A DNA stretch of 48,796 nt from an uncultured Bacilli bacterium (GTDB taxonomy: Bacteria; Bacillota_I; Bacilli_A; RF39; UBA660), in the NCBI GenBank assembly GCA_944359885.1, contig CALVTC010000002.1, positions 1-48,796 of the forward strand. Reading direction: 5' to 3'. The notes below the pieces were generated by a model that was not told the DNA's origin, did not search any database, and was given only the letters and a program-made list of their open reading frames with translations. Below are positions 21,520 through 29,124 of this stretch, in pieces. Position 1 is the stretch's first letter, and the number at the start of each line of letters is the position of its first letter. The position numbers and the translations under genes were made by a program.

Positions 21520-21900
21520 TTATTTTGTCACTCCCATGACATTAACAACCTCATTAGGCCATTTTTCTAAAACAACTTCTCTACAAGCTCCCTCGATTTC
21601 ATCAAATGTATATCCTTGGTCTAAAAGAGTGCTTTCATGAACATCACGTAAAAATTCATATTTTCCATACTCATCTTTTTCATAAAAAGAAGAATCAACT
21701 GGAACAAATTTACCAAATATCTCCAAACCATCAACTGTTGTTAAATTAAAATTATGATTTACTACTTCGTCAATAAGAGAATAATTACTCATAGGATTCG
21801 TAATAATATTCTCAGAGTTCAATTCAAAATTAGAATTTTTACATATAAAATCAAGCAACAAGTGATATCTTATAGTAGCAACAACATCCTTTTTTTGCAT
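21520..21900 (-). CDS. Hypothetical cytoplasmic protein
   Basis: 126-aa ORF on the gene-dense strand. No SD is obvious and no family is recognised. Confidence 0.45.
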   Translation of the reverse strand: MQKKDVVATIRYHLLLDFICKNSNFELNSENIITNPMSNYSLIDEVVNHNFNLTTVDGLEIFGKFVPVDSSFYEKDEYGKYEFLRDVHESTLLDQGYTFDEIEGACREVVLEKWPNEVVNVMGVTK

Positions 21901-22105: not shown

Positions 22106-22135
22106 TTATACCATAAACAAAACATCTACTTCAAG
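22106..22135 (-). promoter_or_regulatory. Possible extended -10 promoter downstream of parC
   Basis: Minus strand: TTGAAG (22130-22135), an 18-nt spacer, then TGGTATAAT (22106-22114). This would give a leader of about 200 nt before the 21900 ATG. Confidence 0.3.
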
Positions 22136-24687
22136 AAGTCATCAATGGTCATCAATCGATCATCAATTTCTTTTAAGGAAACCTTCTCTTTTTTAGGTAT
22201 AACTTTCTCCTTTTTTTCTTCTACCTCTACCAAGTCATCTACTTTTTCTTCTTCTAAATTTTCTCTTCTTTTTAATGTTGCTATCAAGAAACTATCTGTA
22301 AGAGGATGCTTAGATATTTGTCCACCAGTAGAATAACGATCAGAAATACTTAGCTCTGTTAGCTTCAATGTGTGAATGTCCCCATTTTTAATACCAATAT
22401 AATTTTTAGAATCCGTAATAAATGTTTTAATAACATGATAAGGATTACTTTTTACTTCACGTATCATTAATAATCCTCTACGAGAACGTGTAGAAAGTTC
22501 AAATTCTGAAAGACGCACTCTCTTACCAGTACCCTTATCTGTAATAACAGAAAGATATTCCGCATGATTTGGATCAAATTGATTCATAGATACAATATAA
22601 TCATCTTTTAATTTCATAGCTCTAACACCAGCAGCTTTTACACCAACAATTGGCACATCTTCTGTTAAAAAGCTTAACCCATAACCGGTATTCGTAGTAA
22701 GAAATAATGCATTTTCTTCTTCAATAAAACTATCAACAACCAAATCATCATCTTTTAACTTCATACAACTCGTAGGTTTAGAATAACGTGAAAGTTTAAA
22801 ATCTTTTAACTTACTACGTTTAATCATACCATTTCTACTAACAATAACAACATTCTTACTAACCTCAAAAGAAGAAACCGGAATGGCACTCACTACCGCT
22901 TCATCTGGAGACATCGCAATAACATTGCTAACATGTTTAGGCATATCTTTCCATTTCAAATCCGGTAAAATATGAACCGGAATATGTAAATAATTACCAT
23001 GTGTAGTAAACACCAATAAAGTATCTAGGGTACTCATCTCATAAATTCCTAAAATATAATCTCCCTCTTTAATTGTAATATCCTCTGGATTAGATGCTGT
23101 ATAACTTCTAAACGATGTACGTTTTACATAACCATCTCTCGTTACCATAACAACACAATCTTCTTTTGGAATCATAGCAGCTGTATCAATCTTAATCTCC
23201 GTAATTTCAGCTTTAACATCTGTAAGACGTTCCGTTGGATAATTTTTCTTTACATCTCGTAAATCTTTCTTCATAACAGACTTCATTACCTCTTCACTAC
23301 CAAGTATAGCAGTAAGCCCATTAATAATTTTCTCTAAATTTGCCATCTCTTCTTCCAATGAAACAACATCTGTATTCGTCAAACGATAAAGTTGTAAAGT
23401 AACAATTGCTTCTGCTTGTTCCATAGTAAAAAGGAATTCTTTTACTAAGTTATCTTTAGCATCACTCTTATTCTTAGACTCACGAATTACTCGAATAACA
23501 TCATCTAAAATAGAAATACATTTAATTAAACCTTCTACAATATGATAACGAGCCTTTGCATGTTTCAAATCAAACTCTGTACGACGACGTACCACTTCTT
23601 TTTGATGTTGAATAAAAGCATCTAGACAACCAGTAAGTCCTAATAATTTTGGTCTTTTATTAACAATCGCAACCATATTAAAATTATAATTAATTTGCAT
23701 ATCCGTATTTTTAAGTAAATAATTAACAACTAAATCAACATTAGCATTCTTCTTTAAATCAATAACAACTCTAACATCACTAGCTGACTCATCTCTTACT
23801 TCACTAATTCCATCAATCTTTTTATCAATACGAATATCATCAATTTTCTTTACCATCAACGCCTTATTAACTTCAAATGGAATCTCAGTAATTACAATAG
23901 ATTTACCATTTTTTGTCTCTTCGATTGTATATCTACTTTTTACAACAATCTTTCCACGGCCAGTTTCATATGCTTGTCGAATCCCAGCAATTCCTTCAAT
24001 CACTCCACCAGTTGGAAAATCAGGACCTTTAACATAATTCATTAAAGTATCTAAACTACAATTAGGACTATCGATTCTATGAATGGTTGCATCAATAATC
24101 TCTCCCAAATTATGTGGTGGAATATTAGTAGCATAACCAGCAGAAATTCCCATTGCTCCATAAACAAGAAGTGCTGGAAAACGTGCCGGTAAAACCGTAG
24201 GTTCAACAGTAGTATCATCAAAGTTCGGAGCAAACTCTACAGTATCCTTATCAATATCTCGAAGCATCTCATTACTAATTTTAGAAAGTCTTGCTTCAGT
24301 ATAACGATAGGCAGCTGGACTGTCTCCATCAATAGACCCATTATTACCATGCATATCAATATAAGGAAGTCTAGTTTTCCATGGTTGACTCATACGAACC
24401 ATTGCATCATAAATAGAACTATCACCATGAGGATGATAATTACCAATAACATCTCCTACAGTCTTAGCACTCTTACGATACCCATGATCATAAGTATTTT
24501 TTTCCTTATGCATAGAATATAAAATACGACGTTGAACTGGTTTTAATCCATCTCTGGCATCAGGAATAGCTCGATCTTGAATAATATATTTCGAATAACT
24601 TCCAAACCGCTCTCCCATGATATCTTCTAATGTATAATCAAAAATCTTTTCAATTACTTCCTGTGTTTCTGTTTTTTTCTTAGGCAT
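22126..24687 (-). CDS. parC: DNA topoisomerase IV subunit A
   Basis: 853 aa. GERFGSYSKYIIQDRAIPDARDGLKPVQRRILYSM is the ParC-type N-terminus (RFG.YSKYIIQ), and the active-site region reads AAYRYTEARL. I saw no GyrA-box (QRRGGKG). Confidence 0.9.
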   Translation of the reverse strand: MPKKKTETQEVIEKIFDYTLEDIMGERFGSYSKYIIQDRAIPDARDGLKPVQRRILYSMHKEKNTYDHGYRKSAKTVGDVIGNYHPHGDSSIYDAMVRMSQPWKTRLPYIDMHGNNGSIDGDSPAAYRYTEARLSKISNEMLRDIDKDTVEFAPNFDDTTVEPTVLPARFPALLVYGAMGISAGYATNIPPHNLGEIIDATIHRIDSPNCSLDTLMNYVKGPDFPTGGVIEGIAGIRQAYETGRGKIVVKSRYTIEETKNGKSIVITEIPFEVNKALMVKKIDDIRIDKKIDGISEVRDESASDVRVVIDLKKNANVDLVVNYLLKNTDMQINYNFNMVAIVNKRPKLLGLTGCLDAFIQHQKEVVRRRTEFDLKHAKARYHIVEGLIKCISILDDVIRVIRESKNKSDAKDNLVKEFLFTMEQAEAIVTLQLYRLTNTDVVSLEEEMANLEKIINGLTAILGSEEVMKSVMKKDLRDVKKNYPTERLTDVKAEITEIKIDTAAMIPKEDCVVMVTRDGYVKRTSFRSYTASNPEDITIKEGDYILGIYEMSTLDTLLVFTTHGNYLHIPVHILPDLKWKDMPKHVSNVIAMSPDEAVVSAIPVSSFEVSKNVVIVSRNGMIKRSKLKDFKLSRYSKPTSCMKLKDDDLVVDSFIEEENALFLTTNTGYGLSFLTEDVPIVGVKAAGVRAMKLKDDYIVSMNQFDPNHAEYLSVITDKGTGKRVRLSEFELSTRSRRGLLMIREVKSNPYHVIKTFITDSKNYIGIKNGDIHTLKLTELSISDRYSTGGQISKHPLTDSFLIATLKRRENLEEEKVDDLVEVEEKKEKVIPKKEKVSLKEIDDRLMTIDDFLK

Positions 24688-24710
24688 AACTACACTCCCT
24701 CATCTTCTAA

Positions 24711-25184
24711 TTAATGAATGAGACACCCCTCATCCTCAGATATTATTATTTTATCATCACTAGACTGTATATATTGATCCACAAAACTCGAAAAATATGG
24801 AAAAATATCCTCATCTAGTATACCGAATTTTTCCAAGAAAAGATAACCAGTTAAATCATCAATCTCCCGATTCATAAATCTTGGATGTGAAAAAAGATCG
24901 GAAGAGTAAAAACATGGCATTTCAATAAAATCTGCTGTTAATGGTTTATCTTTCTCTTTGGCAAATACCATCATCCCTGTATATTTTGATCCATCCCCTT
25001 GCAAAATAACTTCATCAATTTCACGAAAAGTAAGTCCATGCATCATCCCAAAGGGAATAACTCTAGTATCTTTACTACCAATATTCAAACTAACTTCCGC
25101 CTCAAAATCCTCACTGCAAAAAGCGCCTTGATATAGTGCTACATACCATTCAATATTCGAACTAATCTTATAATTTTTATTCAT
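24711..25184 (-). CDS. parE-parC array paralog P5 (unknown family)
   Basis: 157 aa from the ATG at 25184 (SD GGGGG 6 nt upstream). Motifs: IEWYVALY, RVIPFG, LTFREI, YTGMMVFAKEKDK, FPYFSSFV. Ends in LIH. Confidence 0.7.
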   Translation of the reverse strand: MNKNYKISSNIEWYVALYQGAFCSEDFEAEVSLNIGSKDTRVIPFGMMHGLTFREIDEVILQGDGSKYTGMMVFAKEKDKPLTADFIEMPCFYSSDLFSHPRFMNREIDDLTGYLFLEKFGILDEDIFPYFSSFVDQYIQSSDDKIIISEDEGCLIH

Positions 25185-25207
25185 AAATAACCCCCACGAA
25201 ATAACAA

Positions 25208-25678
25208 TCAATGTATTAAATTATCCTTTGGTTGTTTGATATAACTTTTATTTTCATTTTTATATTGAGATATAAAGTCTTTAGCAACAATTTTTTCTGC
25301 TTCGCTAAAAGAGACAAAATTGACATTAAAATAAGAAAGTAAATGATAATCGATTCGGCTATTACATAAAGAAGAGTCATAGAAACAATCCTCCTTATAA
25401 AAGCGATAATATAAAGGTTTTGTAGGATAATTTCCACGACTTCTATCATTAGCAAATACTAACATACCATGATAGCCCATAACTTTATCTAAAACAGGAT
25501 CATAATTCATATCCTCAAAGGTAAAATCTCGAACAAAACCAAATGGAATAACTTTTGTCTGCTTATCATCAATTTTGGAAATAGCATCACCCAAAGGATC
25601 ATTCGCATTAATATATTGAGGAAATAATGCAACATACCATCGCAACTTACTTCTCCTTTCAAAATTACTATTTCTCAT
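25208..25678 (-). CDS. parE-parC array paralog P4 (unknown family)
   Basis: 156 aa with SD GGAGGTGG. Motifs: LRWYVALF, KVIPFG, FTFEDM, YHGMLVFANDRS. Ends in LIH. Confidence 0.7.
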   Translation of the reverse strand: MRNSNFERRSKLRWYVALFPQYINANDPLGDAISKIDDKQTKVIPFGFVRDFTFEDMNYDPVLDKVMGYHGMLVFANDRSRGNYPTKPLYYRFYKEDCFYDSSLCNSRIDYHLLSYFNVNFVSFSEAEKIVAKDFISQYKNENKSYIKQPKDNLIH

Positions 25679-25734
25679 AACACCACCTCCAAAATCAAAA
25701 TAGCAGCATTTATTTCTAAAATAAAACTTAAAAA

Positions 25735-26169
25735 CTAAGAAAACTTTATTGTTTTCACAAGTTTACTTTCTTCTTCCATATAAGAATATCCACAATATCT
25801 TACCAAGAAATCAATCAAAAAGGGTTGAAAATCTTCAGGATAAAATGAAAAATCATTACTAATAATAGCTTCCATAATCTCCACTAGAGAAAAATCTTGA
25901 TTGCCATTAAAAATATCATTTATAAATAGTTCTACACAATAAGTAGAATCATCATCTTTACAAGCAAACACGTACATTCCACTATATTGGTCATAATCCT
26001 TATCCAATAAATCTGAAAAAGAAAAATCTTTTACTTCATCAAAAGAATAAGAAGAAAAACACTCATCTAGCATATTACTATTTTCGAAAAGGATATCTTT
26101 ATCAATTCCTGCATCAGGAAAAGCACAGTACCAGCTAATATCGGGAATAAATACTTTATTAAAATTCAT
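25735..26169 (-). CDS. parE-parC array paralog P3 (unknown family, most divergent)
   Basis: 144 aa from the ATG at 26169 (SD GGAGGA; the ORF track starts at a GTG inside the SD). Motifs: ISWYCAF, FSFSDL, YSGMYVFACKDDD, FYPEDFQPFLIDFL. Confidence 0.65.
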   Translation of the reverse strand: MNFNKVFIPDISWYCAFPDAGIDKDILFENSNMLDECFSSYSFDEVKDFSFSDLLDKDYDQYSGMYVFACKDDDSTYCVELFINDIFNGNQDFSLVEIMEAIISNDFSFYPEDFQPFLIDFLVRYCGYSYMEEESKLVKTIKFS

Positions 26170-26186
26170 AATTTCCTCCACCTAAA

Positions 26187-26654
26187 CTAATTTACTATAT
26201 CATCATTCTTTTCTAACGTCTTGCCATATTCACTTTCCTTAGGATATCGTTCTAAAAAGTCATCAAAATAAGGATAAAACTCCTCTGTAAACAAATCTTC
26301 GTTGCCCCTACATAAAACTTTCATAACATCCTCAATACTTTTATCCTGATAAAAATCAATATTAAAATCTTCCGGATAATAGAAAAAAGCAGCAGCAGGA
26401 GAAAATGGCAACAACTTTTTATCTTTTTCCTGAGTAAATATCAAAACAGCAGAATAAGATACACCAGTCGTTTCTAAAAAATAATCATTTATCTCTGAAA
26501 AAGTCAATTCTTTCAATAGTCCAAATGGCACAATTCGTGTCGCTTCTTCTCCGATTTTAGAAAAAGCATCTCTAACTGGATCCTCACTAGATAAACTTTG
26601 ACTAAAAAACGCAACATACCATTGAATATCTAACAAATTTGATTGTCTTTTCAT
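26187..26654 (-). CDS. parE-parC array paralog P2 (unknown family)
   Basis: 155 aa with SD AGAGGAGA. Motifs: IQWYVAFF, RIVPFG, LTFSEI, YSAVLIFTQEKDK, FYPYFDDFLERY. Confidence 0.7.
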   Translation of the reverse strand: MKRQSNLLDIQWYVAFFSQSLSSEDPVRDAFSKIGEEATRIVPFGLLKELTFSEINDYFLETTGVSYSAVLIFTQEKDKKLLPFSPAAAFFYYPEDFNIDFYQDKSIEDVMKVLCRGNEDLFTEEFYPYFDDFLERYPKESEYGKTLEKNDDIVN

Positions 26655-26683
26655 AACACATCTCCTCTAATTAATTTAAGTAA

Positions 26684-27148
26684 TTATCTTTTTTCTTGAT
26701 AATGTCGTAGAATTCTTTGGTCTCGTTTATAATATTTCTCTACAAATTGATAAACTAAAGTATCATTAGAAAAGGAAGAAGAAAATTCAAGATAATAATT
26801 AGCGCAAATATCTTCAATTTTCTGATTTTGCATCTCCTCCTCCAGTAACTCTACTCTAGAAAAAACAATTGGAACTAAAACAGAGGAAGAAAAAGACAAG
26901 ACAGCATCATCATGAGCAAAAATCATAATATCAGAAAACCCACCATCTTTTTGATTCAAAAAAGATGCAACATCCATGAGTGTAAAACCACAAAATGCCC
27001 AAAATGGAAAAATAACGGCATTCCCCTCAGCCATTTCCTTTTTATAATAATCAAATATTTCTGAACTAGTCGTATAACTATCAGGTACAGGATTATGCAA
27101 CAAAGAAATATACCACTGAGCACTCTCATTAAAACTAGACTTTTCCAT
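26684..27148 (-). CDS. parE-parC array paralog P1 (unknown family)
   Basis: 154 aa from the ATG at 27148. SD GGAGGA (27154-27159) lies in the 13-nt gap after the parE stop. Motifs: AQWYISLL, VIFPFW, FTLMDV, FSDIMIFAHDD. Confidence 0.65.
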   Translation of the reverse strand: MEKSSFNESAQWYISLLHNPVPDSYTTSSEIFDYYKKEMAEGNAVIFPFWAFCGFTLMDVASFLNQKDGGFSDIMIFAHDDAVLSFSSSVLVPIVFSRVELLEEEMQNQKIEDICANYYLEFSSSFSNDTLVYQFVEKYYKRDQRILRHYQEKR

Positions 27149-27161
27149 ACTAATCCTCCAT

Positions 27162-29066
27162 TTAAGAAATTTGGTAATCATCTTCTAATGTAAATTCAAC
27201 ATTCTCATCGATCCATTCCTTACGTGGAGCAACTTCATCTCCCATCAAAACAGACACTCTTTTTTCAGCTAGCTGCGCATCCTCAATATTAACCCGAATT
27301 AAAGTACGAGTTCCTGGCTGCATAGTTGTCTCACACAACTGATCAGCATTCATCTCACCAAGTCCTTTGTATCGCTGAATCTCACATTTCTTACCCTTTG
27401 CCTTTTGTTGCATCTCCTCAACTGTATAAGCATACTCAATATTTTTACCAGATTGAATTTTAAATAGCGGAGGAAGCGCAACAAAAAGTCTACCATCCTC
27501 AATCAAAGGCCTCATATATCGATAGAAAAAAGTTAGAAGCAAACACTGAATATGTCCACCATCTTCATCAGCATCACTCATAATAATAACCTTACTATAC
27601 TCACAATCATGAATATCAAAATTAGCACCATAACCAGCACCAATCGTATAAATCATAGTATTAATCTCTTCATTTTTTAAAATATCTTCTTCTTTTGTCT
27701 TTTCAGTATTTAAAACCTTACCACGTAAAGGAAGAATTGCTTGATAACGTCTATCCCTTCCTTGCTTTGCAGAACCACCTGCACTATCTCCTTCGACTAA
27801 AAACAATTCTTTTTTACTTTTATCCTTACTAGTTGCTGGAGCAAGTTTTCCAGATAAACTTCTCTCTTCTTTCTTTTTACTTGTTCCCTTACGAGCTTCC
27901 TCTCTAGCTTTTCTAGCAGCTTCCCTAGCAATTTTACTTCTTAAACTCTTATTAATAATTTCAGTTGCAATAGATTTATTTTCTTCTAAGAAAACCCTCA
28001 TTTGCTCTGTAACAATATTTTCAACAGCTACTCTAGCACTAGGAGTACCAAGTTTACCTTTTGTTTGCCCTTCAAATTGCAATATACCTTCTGGAATTTT
28101 CAAACTGATAACTGCCGTCAAGCCCTCACGAACATCGCTTCCCTCCAAAGCCTTATCTTTTGCTTTCAAAAAACCATTATTCTTAGCATAATCATTAAAA
28201 ACTCTAGTTAGCGCAGTCTTAAAACCAACTTCATGCGTACCACCGTCAATAGTTTTAACATTATTAACAAAGCTAACAATTGTTTCATTATAAGAATCTG
28301 TATATTGCATCGCAACATCTACTTCCATCTTATCTCTAACACCAGTAATAGAAAGAACCTTATGCAAGACATTTTTACCCTTATTCATATCTTCAACAAA
28401 CTCTTCAATACCACGTTCATAATGAAACCTACTACTACGTTCATCCTCTTCATCAATAACTTCAATAGTAATTCCCTTTAAAAGGAAAGCGGACTCCTGC
28501 ATTCTTTCACAAACTGTTGTATAAGAAAAATTAGTACTAGAAAAAATAGAATCATCTGGTAAAAAACGAATGGTAGTTCCTGTTTTATTAGTAGTCCCAA
28601 TCTTTTTTAAAGGTACTGAAACATTACCACCATTTTCAAAGCGAATATAATACTCACTCTTATCATGCTTAATATCAACTTCCATCCACTTAGATAAAGC
28701 ATTAACAACACTAGCTCCAACACCATGAAGTCCACCAGATACTTTATAACCATCACTTTCAAATTTACCACCAGCATGAAGTACCGTAAAAATAACTTCA
28801 GGAGTAGAACGACCAGAAGCATGCATACCAGTAGGAATACCACGACCATGATCTTCTACACTAACAGACTTATCACTATGTAAAATAATTTTAATATAGT
28901 CACCAAAACCATTAATCGCCTCATCAATAGCATTATCTACAATTTCCCAGATAAGATGGTGAAGTCCTCTTTTATCAGTAGAACCAATATACATACCAGG
29001 TCTTTTTCGAACAGCTTCAAGTCCTTCTAATATTTTAATCGATGACTCATCATACTTTAATGCCAT
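27162..29066 (-). CDS. parE: DNA topoisomerase IV subunit B
   Basis: 634 aa. ILEGLEAVRKRPGMYIGST, the GHKL ATPase fold (GGLHGVGASVVNALS) and the Toprim EGDSAGGSAKQGRDR motif. Assigned to ParE through pairing with the ParC-type gene. Confidence 0.88.
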   Translation of the reverse strand: MALKYDESSIKILEGLEAVRKRPGMYIGSTDKRGLHHLIWEIVDNAIDEAINGFGDYIKIILHSDKSVSVEDHGRGIPTGMHASGRSTPEVIFTVLHAGGKFESDGYKVSGGLHGVGASVVNALSKWMEVDIKHDKSEYYIRFENGGNVSVPLKKIGTTNKTGTTIRFLPDDSIFSSTNFSYTTVCERMQESAFLLKGITIEVIDEEDERSSRFHYERGIEEFVEDMNKGKNVLHKVLSITGVRDKMEVDVAMQYTDSYNETIVSFVNNVKTIDGGTHEVGFKTALTRVFNDYAKNNGFLKAKDKALEGSDVREGLTAVISLKIPEGILQFEGQTKGKLGTPSARVAVENIVTEQMRVFLEENKSIATEIINKSLRSKIAREAARKAREEARKGTSKKKEERSLSGKLAPATSKDKSKKELFLVEGDSAGGSAKQGRDRRYQAILPLRGKVLNTEKTKEEDILKNEEINTMIYTIGAGYGANFDIHDCEYSKVIIMSDADEDGGHIQCLLLTFFYRYMRPLIEDGRLFVALPPLFKIQSGKNIEYAYTVEEMQQKAKGKKCEIQRYKGLGEMNADQLCETTMQPGTRTLIRVNIEDAQLAEKRVSVLMGDEVAPRKEWIDENVEFTLEDDYQIS

Positions 29067-29096: not shown

Positions 29097-29124
29097 ATTA
29101 TAACAAAAAAGTAAAGTTTTTCAA
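29097..29124 (-). promoter_or_regulatory. Candidate promoter of the parE operon
   Basis: Minus strand: TTGAAA (29119-29124), a 16-nt spacer, then TATAAT (29097-29102), about 30 nt upstream of the parE ATG. It overlaps the upstream terminator hairpin. Confidence 0.4.

Follow-up and report, generated by a model that had tools for sequence, protein, structure and literature searches.

Variable loci held at fixed positions between core genes are well known in bacteria. Accessory and defence genes occupy such hotspots, as in the defence islands and integration hotspots of the Escherichia coli and Pseudomonas pan-genomes, and at other loci whole cassettes are recombined through their flanks, as in the pneumococcal capsule locus between dexB and aliA and the O-antigen loci between galF and gnd. 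In this work, a stretch of 48,796 nt from an uncultured Bacilli bacterium (contig CALVTC010000002.1 of assembly GCA_944359885.1, hereafter the window) was analyzed, in which the genes of the two topoisomerase IV subunits, parE and parC, are separated by an interval of 2.47 kb filled by five minus-strand open reading frames (ORFs, P1 to P5) of 144-157 aa. P1-P5 look like expressed genes and, by sequence comparison, are a species-specific five-fold tandem expansion of a protein family, named family A in this analysis, and the parE-parC junction is a replaceable cassette site and not a fixed part of the operon. The fuller reading, to which an even chance was given, is that the junction is an accessory cassette site swapped by recombination, whose cargo, we infer, probably consists of conflict-related binding proteins.

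The junction resembled the hotspots between core genes in its fixed position, in content that differs among close relatives, in patchy occupancy, in a mixed cargo including a candidate defence gene, and in a history decoupled from that of the flanks. It differed from them in the lack of an integrase, tRNA, att-like repeat or mobile-element hallmark at the junction, in its location within an essential operon, where it separates the genes of two subunits of one enzyme, and in a cargo that is co-oriented, packed as if translationally coupled, and made up of one to five small genes with no island. With the capsule and O-antigen loci it shared a sharp drop of identity at the borders (flanks 92-96%, cargo 62-67% or unalignable), whereas the cargo here encodes small cytoplasmic proteins instead of surface polysaccharides. 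Hotspots between core genes and flank-mediated cassette exchange are already known; what is new is the essential-operon setting without mobile-element hallmarks in reduced genomes, and the cargo family. No description of family A or of a parE-parC cassette site was found in the literature.

The occupancy of the junction was determined by a genome scan with ParE, which gave 80 species representatives (GTDB) with ParE at 70-94% amino-acid identity. These relatives are uncultured gut "Bacilli" or "Tenericutes" metagenome-assembled genomes (MAGs), including Candidatus Faecimonas gallistercoris and Mycoplasma sp. CAG:611, and presumably belong to the RF39-type lineage. Both genes were on one contig in 70 of the 80 representatives, and were counted as adjacent when the gap was at most 130 nt. 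By this measure parE and parC were adjacent (12-118 nt) in 36/70 loci, and the junction was filled in 34/70, with cargo that falls into six or more unrelated gene families: family B, unrelated proteins of 129-178 aa (13 loci); family C, BspA-type leucine-rich repeat (LRR) proteins, here of 600-770 aa (7 loci); family A (4 loci); family D, Bro-N proteins (4 loci); and other genes (6 loci), including a GNAT acetyltransferase, a bacterial sugar transferase and a LemA-looking ORF. Even for the closest relatives, whose ParE is 92-94% identical, occupancy differed: the junction was empty in loci L012 and L013, held only family A in L007, L020 and L093, only family C in L014 and L015, and both A and C in L107 (labels L0nn-L1nn denote retrieved loci, labels P00nn protein clusters). 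The five-gene array was present in no other sampled species. An insert between parE and parC had been called unusual in the original prediction, which is true of Bacillota in general and not of this clade. Since about half of the species are empty, at least six cargo types occur, and the cargo has a history of its own, the junction was regarded as replaceable.

That separate history was evident from the alignments. When the window was compared with nine relatives at the nucleotide level, homology extended up to the end of parE and resumed from the parC ATG, and the interval could not be aligned. In four species with ParE 95-98% identical, nucleotide identity was 92-96% in parE and parC and 62-67% exactly across the gene of A2, a hypervariable group of family A. 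Between L035 and L113 the synonymous (dS) and nonsynonymous (dN) divergence of the flanks was 0.36-0.37 and 0.012-0.02, respectively, as against dN 0.53 and dS 0.82 in A2, and between L029 and L113 parC dS was 0.23 and A2 dN 0.50. Overall, A2 dN was 0.31-0.57 versus flank dS of 0.23-1.05, and exceeded flank dS in both of these pairs. For the conserved group A1, dS between pairs was 0.29-0.67 with dN/dS of 0.2-0.4, and dS of the adjacent parE was 0.8-1.3. A dN of A2 above the neutral divergence of its neighbours indicates either very strong positive selection or import of alleles predating the species split, and the low dS of A1 indicates recent spread between lineages; from both patterns, the history of the cargo is not that of parE and parC, and on these alignments its divergence is decoupled from the flanks.

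As the simplest mechanism for the exchange, we infer homologous recombination via the conserved flanks. Conserved and essential parE and parC would serve as homology arms, and recombination between related strains or species would swap, add or delete the cargo. The location in an essential operon would give constitutive cargo expression and would also protect the cargo, imprecise deletions being lethal. In the species of the window, tandem duplication of the cargo followed by divergence would have produced the array. The sequence directly 5' of parC (GAAAGTAGTGRTAAW) was retained in filled and empty junctions alike, which fits precise replacement that spares parC translation. No integrase, transposase or other mobile-element hallmark was seen at the array, and the repeats in and around it were short and at chance level. 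A 41-nt direct repeat brackets the array (24622-24662 and 27180-27220, 76% identity with a 13-nt exact core), one copy at the parE 3' end (peptide ...NVEFTLEDD) and the other at the parC 5' end (...IFDYTLEDI); by a rough estimate, a chance origin of this repeat is about evenly probable.

The features of the array and its flanks were listed in Table 1. As originally predicted, all five ORFs are minus-strand and occupy the interval from the parE stop to the parC ATG, and their Shine-Dalgarno (SD) motifs, GGAGGA, AGAGGAGA, GGAGGA, GGAGGTGG and GGGGG for P1-P5, were read in the sequence as quoted, with normal spacing to the starts. The intergenic gaps from parE through P1, P2, P3, P4 and P5 to parC measured 13, 29, 17, 56, 23 and 23 nt; of the range of 5-56 nt given earlier, the upper figure was right and the lower should be 13, a trivial difference. 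ParE was confirmed by the Pfam domains HATPase_c, DNA_gyraseB, Toprim and DNA_gyraseB_C on the identical protein of L001, and ParC by DNA_topoisoIV and DNA_gyraseA_C on the L001 copy. Promoter, terminator and co-transcription statements here come from pattern scans only. The minus strand from 22126 to 29066 showed no terminator-like site, in line with the lack of a terminator hairpin noted before, and the best promoter-like site, with 11 of 12 hexamer positions matching, lies about 30 nt 5' of the parE ATG, so that parE-P1-P5-parC is probably one transcription unit, as had been proposed. No signal-peptide-like segment was detected in P1-P5, nor a transmembrane segment in 19-residue hydrophobicity windows, and the proteins were likewise judged soluble in the original prediction. 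P1, P2, P3 and P5 are acidic, with isoelectric points (pI) of 4.0-4.7, P4 being the exception.

Table 1. Features of the parE-parC region in the window
Feature	Position	Strand	Description
candidate promoter of whole unit	29097..29124	-	sigma-70-like TTGAAA, 16-nt spacer, TG-extended TATAAT
parE	27162..29066	-	topoisomerase IV subunit B, 634 aa; upstream conserved flank; stop 27162-27164
P1	26684..27148	-	family A paralog, 154 aa, pI 4.65; SD GGAGGA; start 13 nt past parE stop
P2	26187..26654	-	family A paralog, 155 aa, pI 4.33
P3	25735..26169	-	most degenerate paralog, 144 aa, pI 4.05; lacks PF motif
P4	25208..25678	-	family A paralog, 156 aa, pI 8.4; longest intergenic gap (56 nt) 5' of P4
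P5	24711..25184	-	family A paralog, 157 aa, pI 4.37; end 23 nt ahead of parC ATG
parC	22126..24687	-	topoisomerase IV subunit A, 853 aa; downstream conserved flank; ATG at 24687

The five-gene array was recovered on six independent metagenome contigs (L001-L006) at 99.5-99.8% nucleotide identity, and all five genes were intact on 3/3 contigs long enough to hold it. Relative to each of the six metagenome copies, P4 of the window carried three amino-acid changes, identical throughout (F6L, N24D and D27N), and no synonymous change; within-species polymorphism is too sparse for selection estimates on P1-P5. Altered copies were also encountered elsewhere, namely a truncated P5 (P0004, 102 aa), a frameshifted P1 (P0010, 72 aa) and a stop-loss P3 (P0003, 164 aa), which may be strain variation or assembly error.

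The homology of the five copies was evaluated by BLASTP and by profile search. P2, P4 and P5 matched each other at E 1e-13 to 1e-22 (P2-P5 8e-22, P2-P4 6e-15), whereas P3 matched P2 at 1e-3 over 146 aa and P1 matched P5 at 1e-2; identity between the copies was 15-28%. A hidden Markov model (HMM) was then built solely from family A members outside the species of the window, with 200 shuffled sequences as control. P1 (E 3.3e-7), P2 (8e-7), P5 (8.7e-7) and P4 (3.8e-6) were detected by it, and the best of the shuffled sequences gave E 3. P3 was weak, at E 0.83 in this test and 0.014 in a leave-one-out test, and its membership was supported by size, position and the shared WY and VFA blocks. In addition, alignment of the five-copy profile with the main-body profile of family A by hhalign gave a probability of 82.6% and E 1e-5. 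The earlier description of the five ORFs as homologous yet strongly diverged was therefore borne out for P1, P2, P4 and P5 and marginally for P3; the shared motif blocks listed with it were all present, and P4 and P5 both end in LIH.

Family A is an undescribed family of soluble alpha/beta proteins of about 150 aa. A HMMER search of 1.84 billion representative proteins returned 9 matches, which included the P2, P3, P4 and P5 clusters of the window's own species and P0010, the truncated P1; the remaining 4 of 9 were distant proteins of 134-161 aa (E 3e-7 to 3e-5). Extension of the profile with members recovered by synteny gave about 100 clusters among 5.8 billion proteins, all of them unnamed, without a Pfam domain, and from metagenomes or MAGs of uncultured small-genome gut Bacilli. 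A metagenome scan with a narrower alignment yielded 7 short loci, which were left out of the analysis. For P1-P5 no Pfam match was obtained at E <= 1 and no significant match in NCBIfam or PADLOC, 92 members scanned singly against Pfam had no common family, P0012 had no PADLOC match, and no PHROG match occurred among the 92 aligned members. A sequence-profile search of the PDB with family A gave nothing but spurious matches to haemagglutinin (E 0.015 at best). The family had been called unrecognised from the letters alone, and the Pfam (including its Imm families), NCBIfam and PADLOC scans bear this out. No relatives were found among IMG/VR viral contigs, INPHARED phages or PLSDB plasmids.

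The main body of family A showed strongly conserved ends (MKENTFDVPAYKF, IPFENVDGL, RCFFERYQDGSYEKTKERIK and KRMYRCFFERYQDGSYEKTKERIK) and a variable, indel-rich middle. The window copies are outliers of the family, 12-16% identical to P0012, and keep little beyond the hydrophobic core positions, nearly all conserved motif residues being lost. The AlphaFold2 models of P2 (predicted local distance difference test (pLDDT) 79.4, predicted template modelling score (pTM) 0.74) and P0012 (pLDDT 88.7, pTM 0.82) were both predicted to contain a four- to six-stranded N-terminal alpha/beta part followed by C-terminal helices. With Foldseek, no neighbour was found at E <= 0.001 in the PDB (two models) or BFVD (one model); the best PDB matches were at E 0.46 and 0.39 (TM <= 0.24) and the best BFVD match at E 0.056 (TM <= 0.41). 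The predicted fold of family A is hence one without a solved (PDB) or viral (BFVD) counterpart.

Four groups were distinguished in family A, i.e. conserved A1 (74-88% identical), hypervariable A2 (39-54%), A3, and a divergent group from the window and L007. The order parE, A1 (152 aa), A2 (155-158 aa), parC recurred in L029, L107 and L117-L119, which suggests that A1 and A2 form a two-gene module of one conserved and one variable paralog. The species of the window carries neither A1 nor A2 in recognisable form.

The genomic contexts of family A were sampled via homology, with no bias towards any locus. Eight of the 11 contexts, covering all subfamilies, were parE-[A]-parC: one copy each with P0009, P0039, P0074 and P0060, two copies with P0040, one copy on each side of an LRR protein with P0006, the order A-A-C-C with P0069, and one copy plus a 51-aa remnant with P0021. 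The remaining members were P0053 and P0028, which sit with other unknown tandem paralogs in the interval from mfd to spoVT-metS, and P0048, upstream of argS. In the junction, family A genes start 8-13 nt past the parE stop and end 0-11 nt ahead of parC (23 nt in the window), and in L115 the gene overlaps parC; this spacing alone makes it probable that family A is translated from the mRNA of the topoisomerase IV operon. Junction-resident family A was seen only in genomes with ParE at least 83% identical to that of the window, and the family is confined to one clade of uncultured small-genome gut Bacilli. Its neighbours in the 11 contexts were parE, parC, LRR and unknown proteins, and no toxin, secretion or known defence gene was found beside it; for the window itself, the absence of a toxin, LXG/WXG100 or secretion gene had been remarked on before and was agreed with here.

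A short ORF of 51-53 aa that begins with the A2 N-terminus (MKENTFDVPAYKFF...) and then breaks was present between an intact A1 gene and parC in L092 (6489-6644), L093 (6489-6644) and L094 (6489-6650); it looks like a deletion remnant, that is, cargo decay in place. The region from mfd to spoVT-metS was also variable (L095 184-3564, L105 4333-6085, L106 4333-6205), with the family A gene between other unknown families, one of which comprises tandem paralogs of 113, 205 and 230 aa with a common RLEQMPDEIK-like C-terminal motif.

Other occupants of the junction were characterized as well. Family B (L045-L061, 13 loci; e.g. L045 8862-9338 and L056 4450-4947) is helical-looking by eye, had no database match, and is the junction occupant in most species of a sister clade with ParE 75-80% identical to that of the window; its interpretation as a diverged family A was rejected (hhalign probability 0.1-0.2%). 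Family C proteins are 480-770 aa long and lack a signal peptide, with a conserved N-terminal region of about 400 aa (motif GKNTGWCTAG...GDFYIYYT) and C-terminal BspA-type LRRs. They were located in L008 (8185-10011), L009 (5816-7447), L011 (1578-3278) and L107 (5531-8673) and in the junctions of L014, L015, L030, L033 and L076, lie alongside family A in the junctions of L008 and L107, and vary in repeat number among near-identical contigs (543, 566 and 608 aa). A role of family C as a toxin or known sensor was not retained, as no PDB, PADLOC or NCBIfam match was found. Family D (275-297 aa) occurs in four species, in L021 (11993-12823) and in the junctions of L022, L025 and L036; it carries a Bro-N domain and matched the PADLOC candidate PDC-S13 over its full length at E 8e-105. 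PDC systems are predictions from guilt-by-embedding (bioRxiv 10.1101/2024.01.29.577857), and a literature search on PDC-S13 returned nothing.

As for function, P1-P5 may be non-enzymatic binders in inter-genomic conflict, of immunity, defence or decoy type, which is the weakest step in the cassette-site reading. It was proposed because the window copies keep only core residues while their surfaces vary freely, because copies multiply and diverge and A2 is hypervariable, and because an LRR family and a defence candidate occupy the same slot. Like the immunity arrays (SUKH, Imm, CdiI orphans), the window copies are tandem, fast-diverging, soluble, often acidic and about 150 aa long, with only the fold core conserved; unlike them, family A has no Imm/SUKH Pfam match or fold match to solved immunity proteins, and neither the window nor the 11 contexts contain a toxin, LXG/WXG100 or secretion gene. 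The original prediction had offered an orphan immunity cassette hitch-hiking on a constitutive essential operon. The hitch-hiking part is favored by patchy occupancy, homology breaks at gene borders, decoupled divergence and occurrence at two unrelated loci, whereas the immunity label is unsupported, since no toxin partner was present in the 11 contexts and no Imm/SUKH profile or fold match was obtained.

Several points weigh against the view of an exchangeable site with conflict-related cargo. The conflict part draws on hypervariability, tandem expansion and a junction shared with a PDC candidate that is itself only predicted; no toxin, secretion or known defence gene adjoins family A in its 11 contexts, and the family has no PADLOC or PHROG match. 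The location is possibly specific, given that 8/11 contexts, all subfamilies included, lie in the junction with tight translational packing. A1 is fairly conserved (74-88% identity, dN/dS 0.2-0.4), as a topoisomerase-linked function would predict. Moreover, the dN and dS values were calculated by the Nei-Gojobori method on saturated, hard-to-align sequences, and flank-mediated recombination was deduced from divergence patterns.

Some of these points lead to a different explanation, close to the other hypothesis of the original prediction, in which family A supplies topoisomerase IV with accessory partners (modulators, protectors or decoys) made from one mRNA together with ParE and ParC, the five copies being tuned to different poisons or phage inhibitors. 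We consider it unlikely, but it keeps real weight because of the 8/11 linkage in homology-sampled contexts, the tight packing (starts 8-13 nt past the parE stop, ends 0-11 nt ahead of parC, overlap in L115), the conserved A1, which is under purifying selection, and family B, another family of about 150 aa at the same place in 13 species of the sister clade. The strong acidity of 4/5 window copies (pI 4.0-4.7) recalls DNA mimics, yet other family A members have pI 5.3-8.3 and acidity is not a family-wide feature. A fixed partner is also difficult to reconcile with the 36/70 relatives in which parE and parC are adjacent, some with ParE 92% identical among them, with the LRR proteins, PDC-S13, GNAT and sugar transferase likewise found in the junction, and with hypervariable cargo beside highly conserved ParE and ParC. 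Members at unrelated loci (mfd-spoVT and 5' of argS), which according to the original prediction would weaken a topoisomerase link, were indeed found, although 8/11 contexts still lie in the junction. With the known topoisomerase protectors and modulators, Qnr/MfpA/AlbG, GyrI (SbmC) and YacG, the window proteins share small size, acidity in most copies and a place near type II topoisomerase genes that hints at a possible analogy of role. No sequence similarity to ParE or ParC was detected, nor any sequence or fold similarity to the known protectors: pentapeptide repeats (Qnr, MfpA, AlbG, McbG) had no Pfam match in family A and its predicted alpha/beta-plus-helices fold is not a beta-helix, a GyrI-like domain or YacG zinc finger had no Pfam/NCBIfam match and no PDB fold neighbour, and the known protectors, unlike family A, are not known to be encoded between the subunit genes of their enzyme. 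An origin of family A as a decoy by duplication of ParE or ParC was rejected, as it resembles neither. A stronger version of this explanation would add family A to the topoisomerase IV operon of this clade as its third, hypervariable member: a guard, decoy or protector of novel fold, binding either ParE/ParC or the factors that attack them, and diversifying (with five-fold multiplication in the window) in an arms race with topoisomerase poisons encoded by phages or competitors, while family B would do likewise in the sister clade. This we hold to be decidedly unlikely.

Two further explanations dispense with both conflict and topoisomerase IV. Lineage-specific housekeeping or regulatory proteins, inserted ancestrally and inherited vertically with losses, would account for a family limited to one clade (ParE >= 83% identical), for the strongly conserved N- and C-terminal motifs of its main body and for the lack of an adjoining mobile-element or defence hallmark. 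However, A2 dN above flank dS and A1 dS below it are incompatible with simple vertical descent, and the patchy presence among near relatives, the loss of nearly all conserved motif residues in the window copies and their five-fold tandem multiplication also speak against it, so that it appears quite unlikely. The five ORFs could alternatively be decaying or functionless remnants, non-coding or pseudogene-like under relaxed constraint and open by chance, which would suit the very low identity between copies (15-28%), the lost invariant residues, the truncated or read-through P1, P3 and P5 variants of other metagenomes (P0010, P0003, P0004), and the three nonsynonymous and no synonymous differences in P4 within the species. 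This is very improbable, for five ORFs of 144-157 codons stand open in DNA of 30% G+C, each with a good and well-spaced SD, three independent contigs carry all five genes intact, 4/5 match a profile from other species, and the AlphaFold2 fold of P2 is confident.

Beyond the array, a 126-aa ORF (21520-21900, minus strand) lies between parC and ylbD in the window and has no Pfam or NCBIfam match; as a sixth paralog it was rejected on BLASTP and HMM comparison. In relatives the parC-ylbD junction had no insert in L007, L113 and L115, and held unrelated ORFs of 302 aa (L008), 358 aa (L092), 216 aa (L111) and 369 aa (L117), which looks like a second cassette slot directly downstream. Across the window (1-48796) the plus-strand GC skew was strongly negative nearly throughout (about -0.2 to -0.45), nearly all long ORFs were on the minus strand, with plus-strand ORFs at about 7-8 kb and 35-39 kb as exceptions, and no Rfam family reached the gathering threshold. 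AGG reassignment has been reported in uncultured Bacilli (PMC8629427); an alternative genetic code of this kind was rejected here, as the positions of AGG codons in parE are Arg or Lys in relatives.

If the parE-parC junction is an accessory cassette site as read here, the operon of an essential two-subunit enzyme would act as a recombination-exchangeable docking site without mobile-element machinery, and would offer a compact flexible gene pool to genomes of 1.5 Mb. Should family A prove to be made up of topoisomerase partners, it would be a new class of topoisomerase IV partners, with a bearing on quinolone and poison biology in abundant uncultured gut bacteria. Whatever its function, family A is new, comprises about 100 clusters and has a confidently predicted fold without a solved counterpart, and one of its subfamilies outpaces the neutral sites of its neighbours in divergence.

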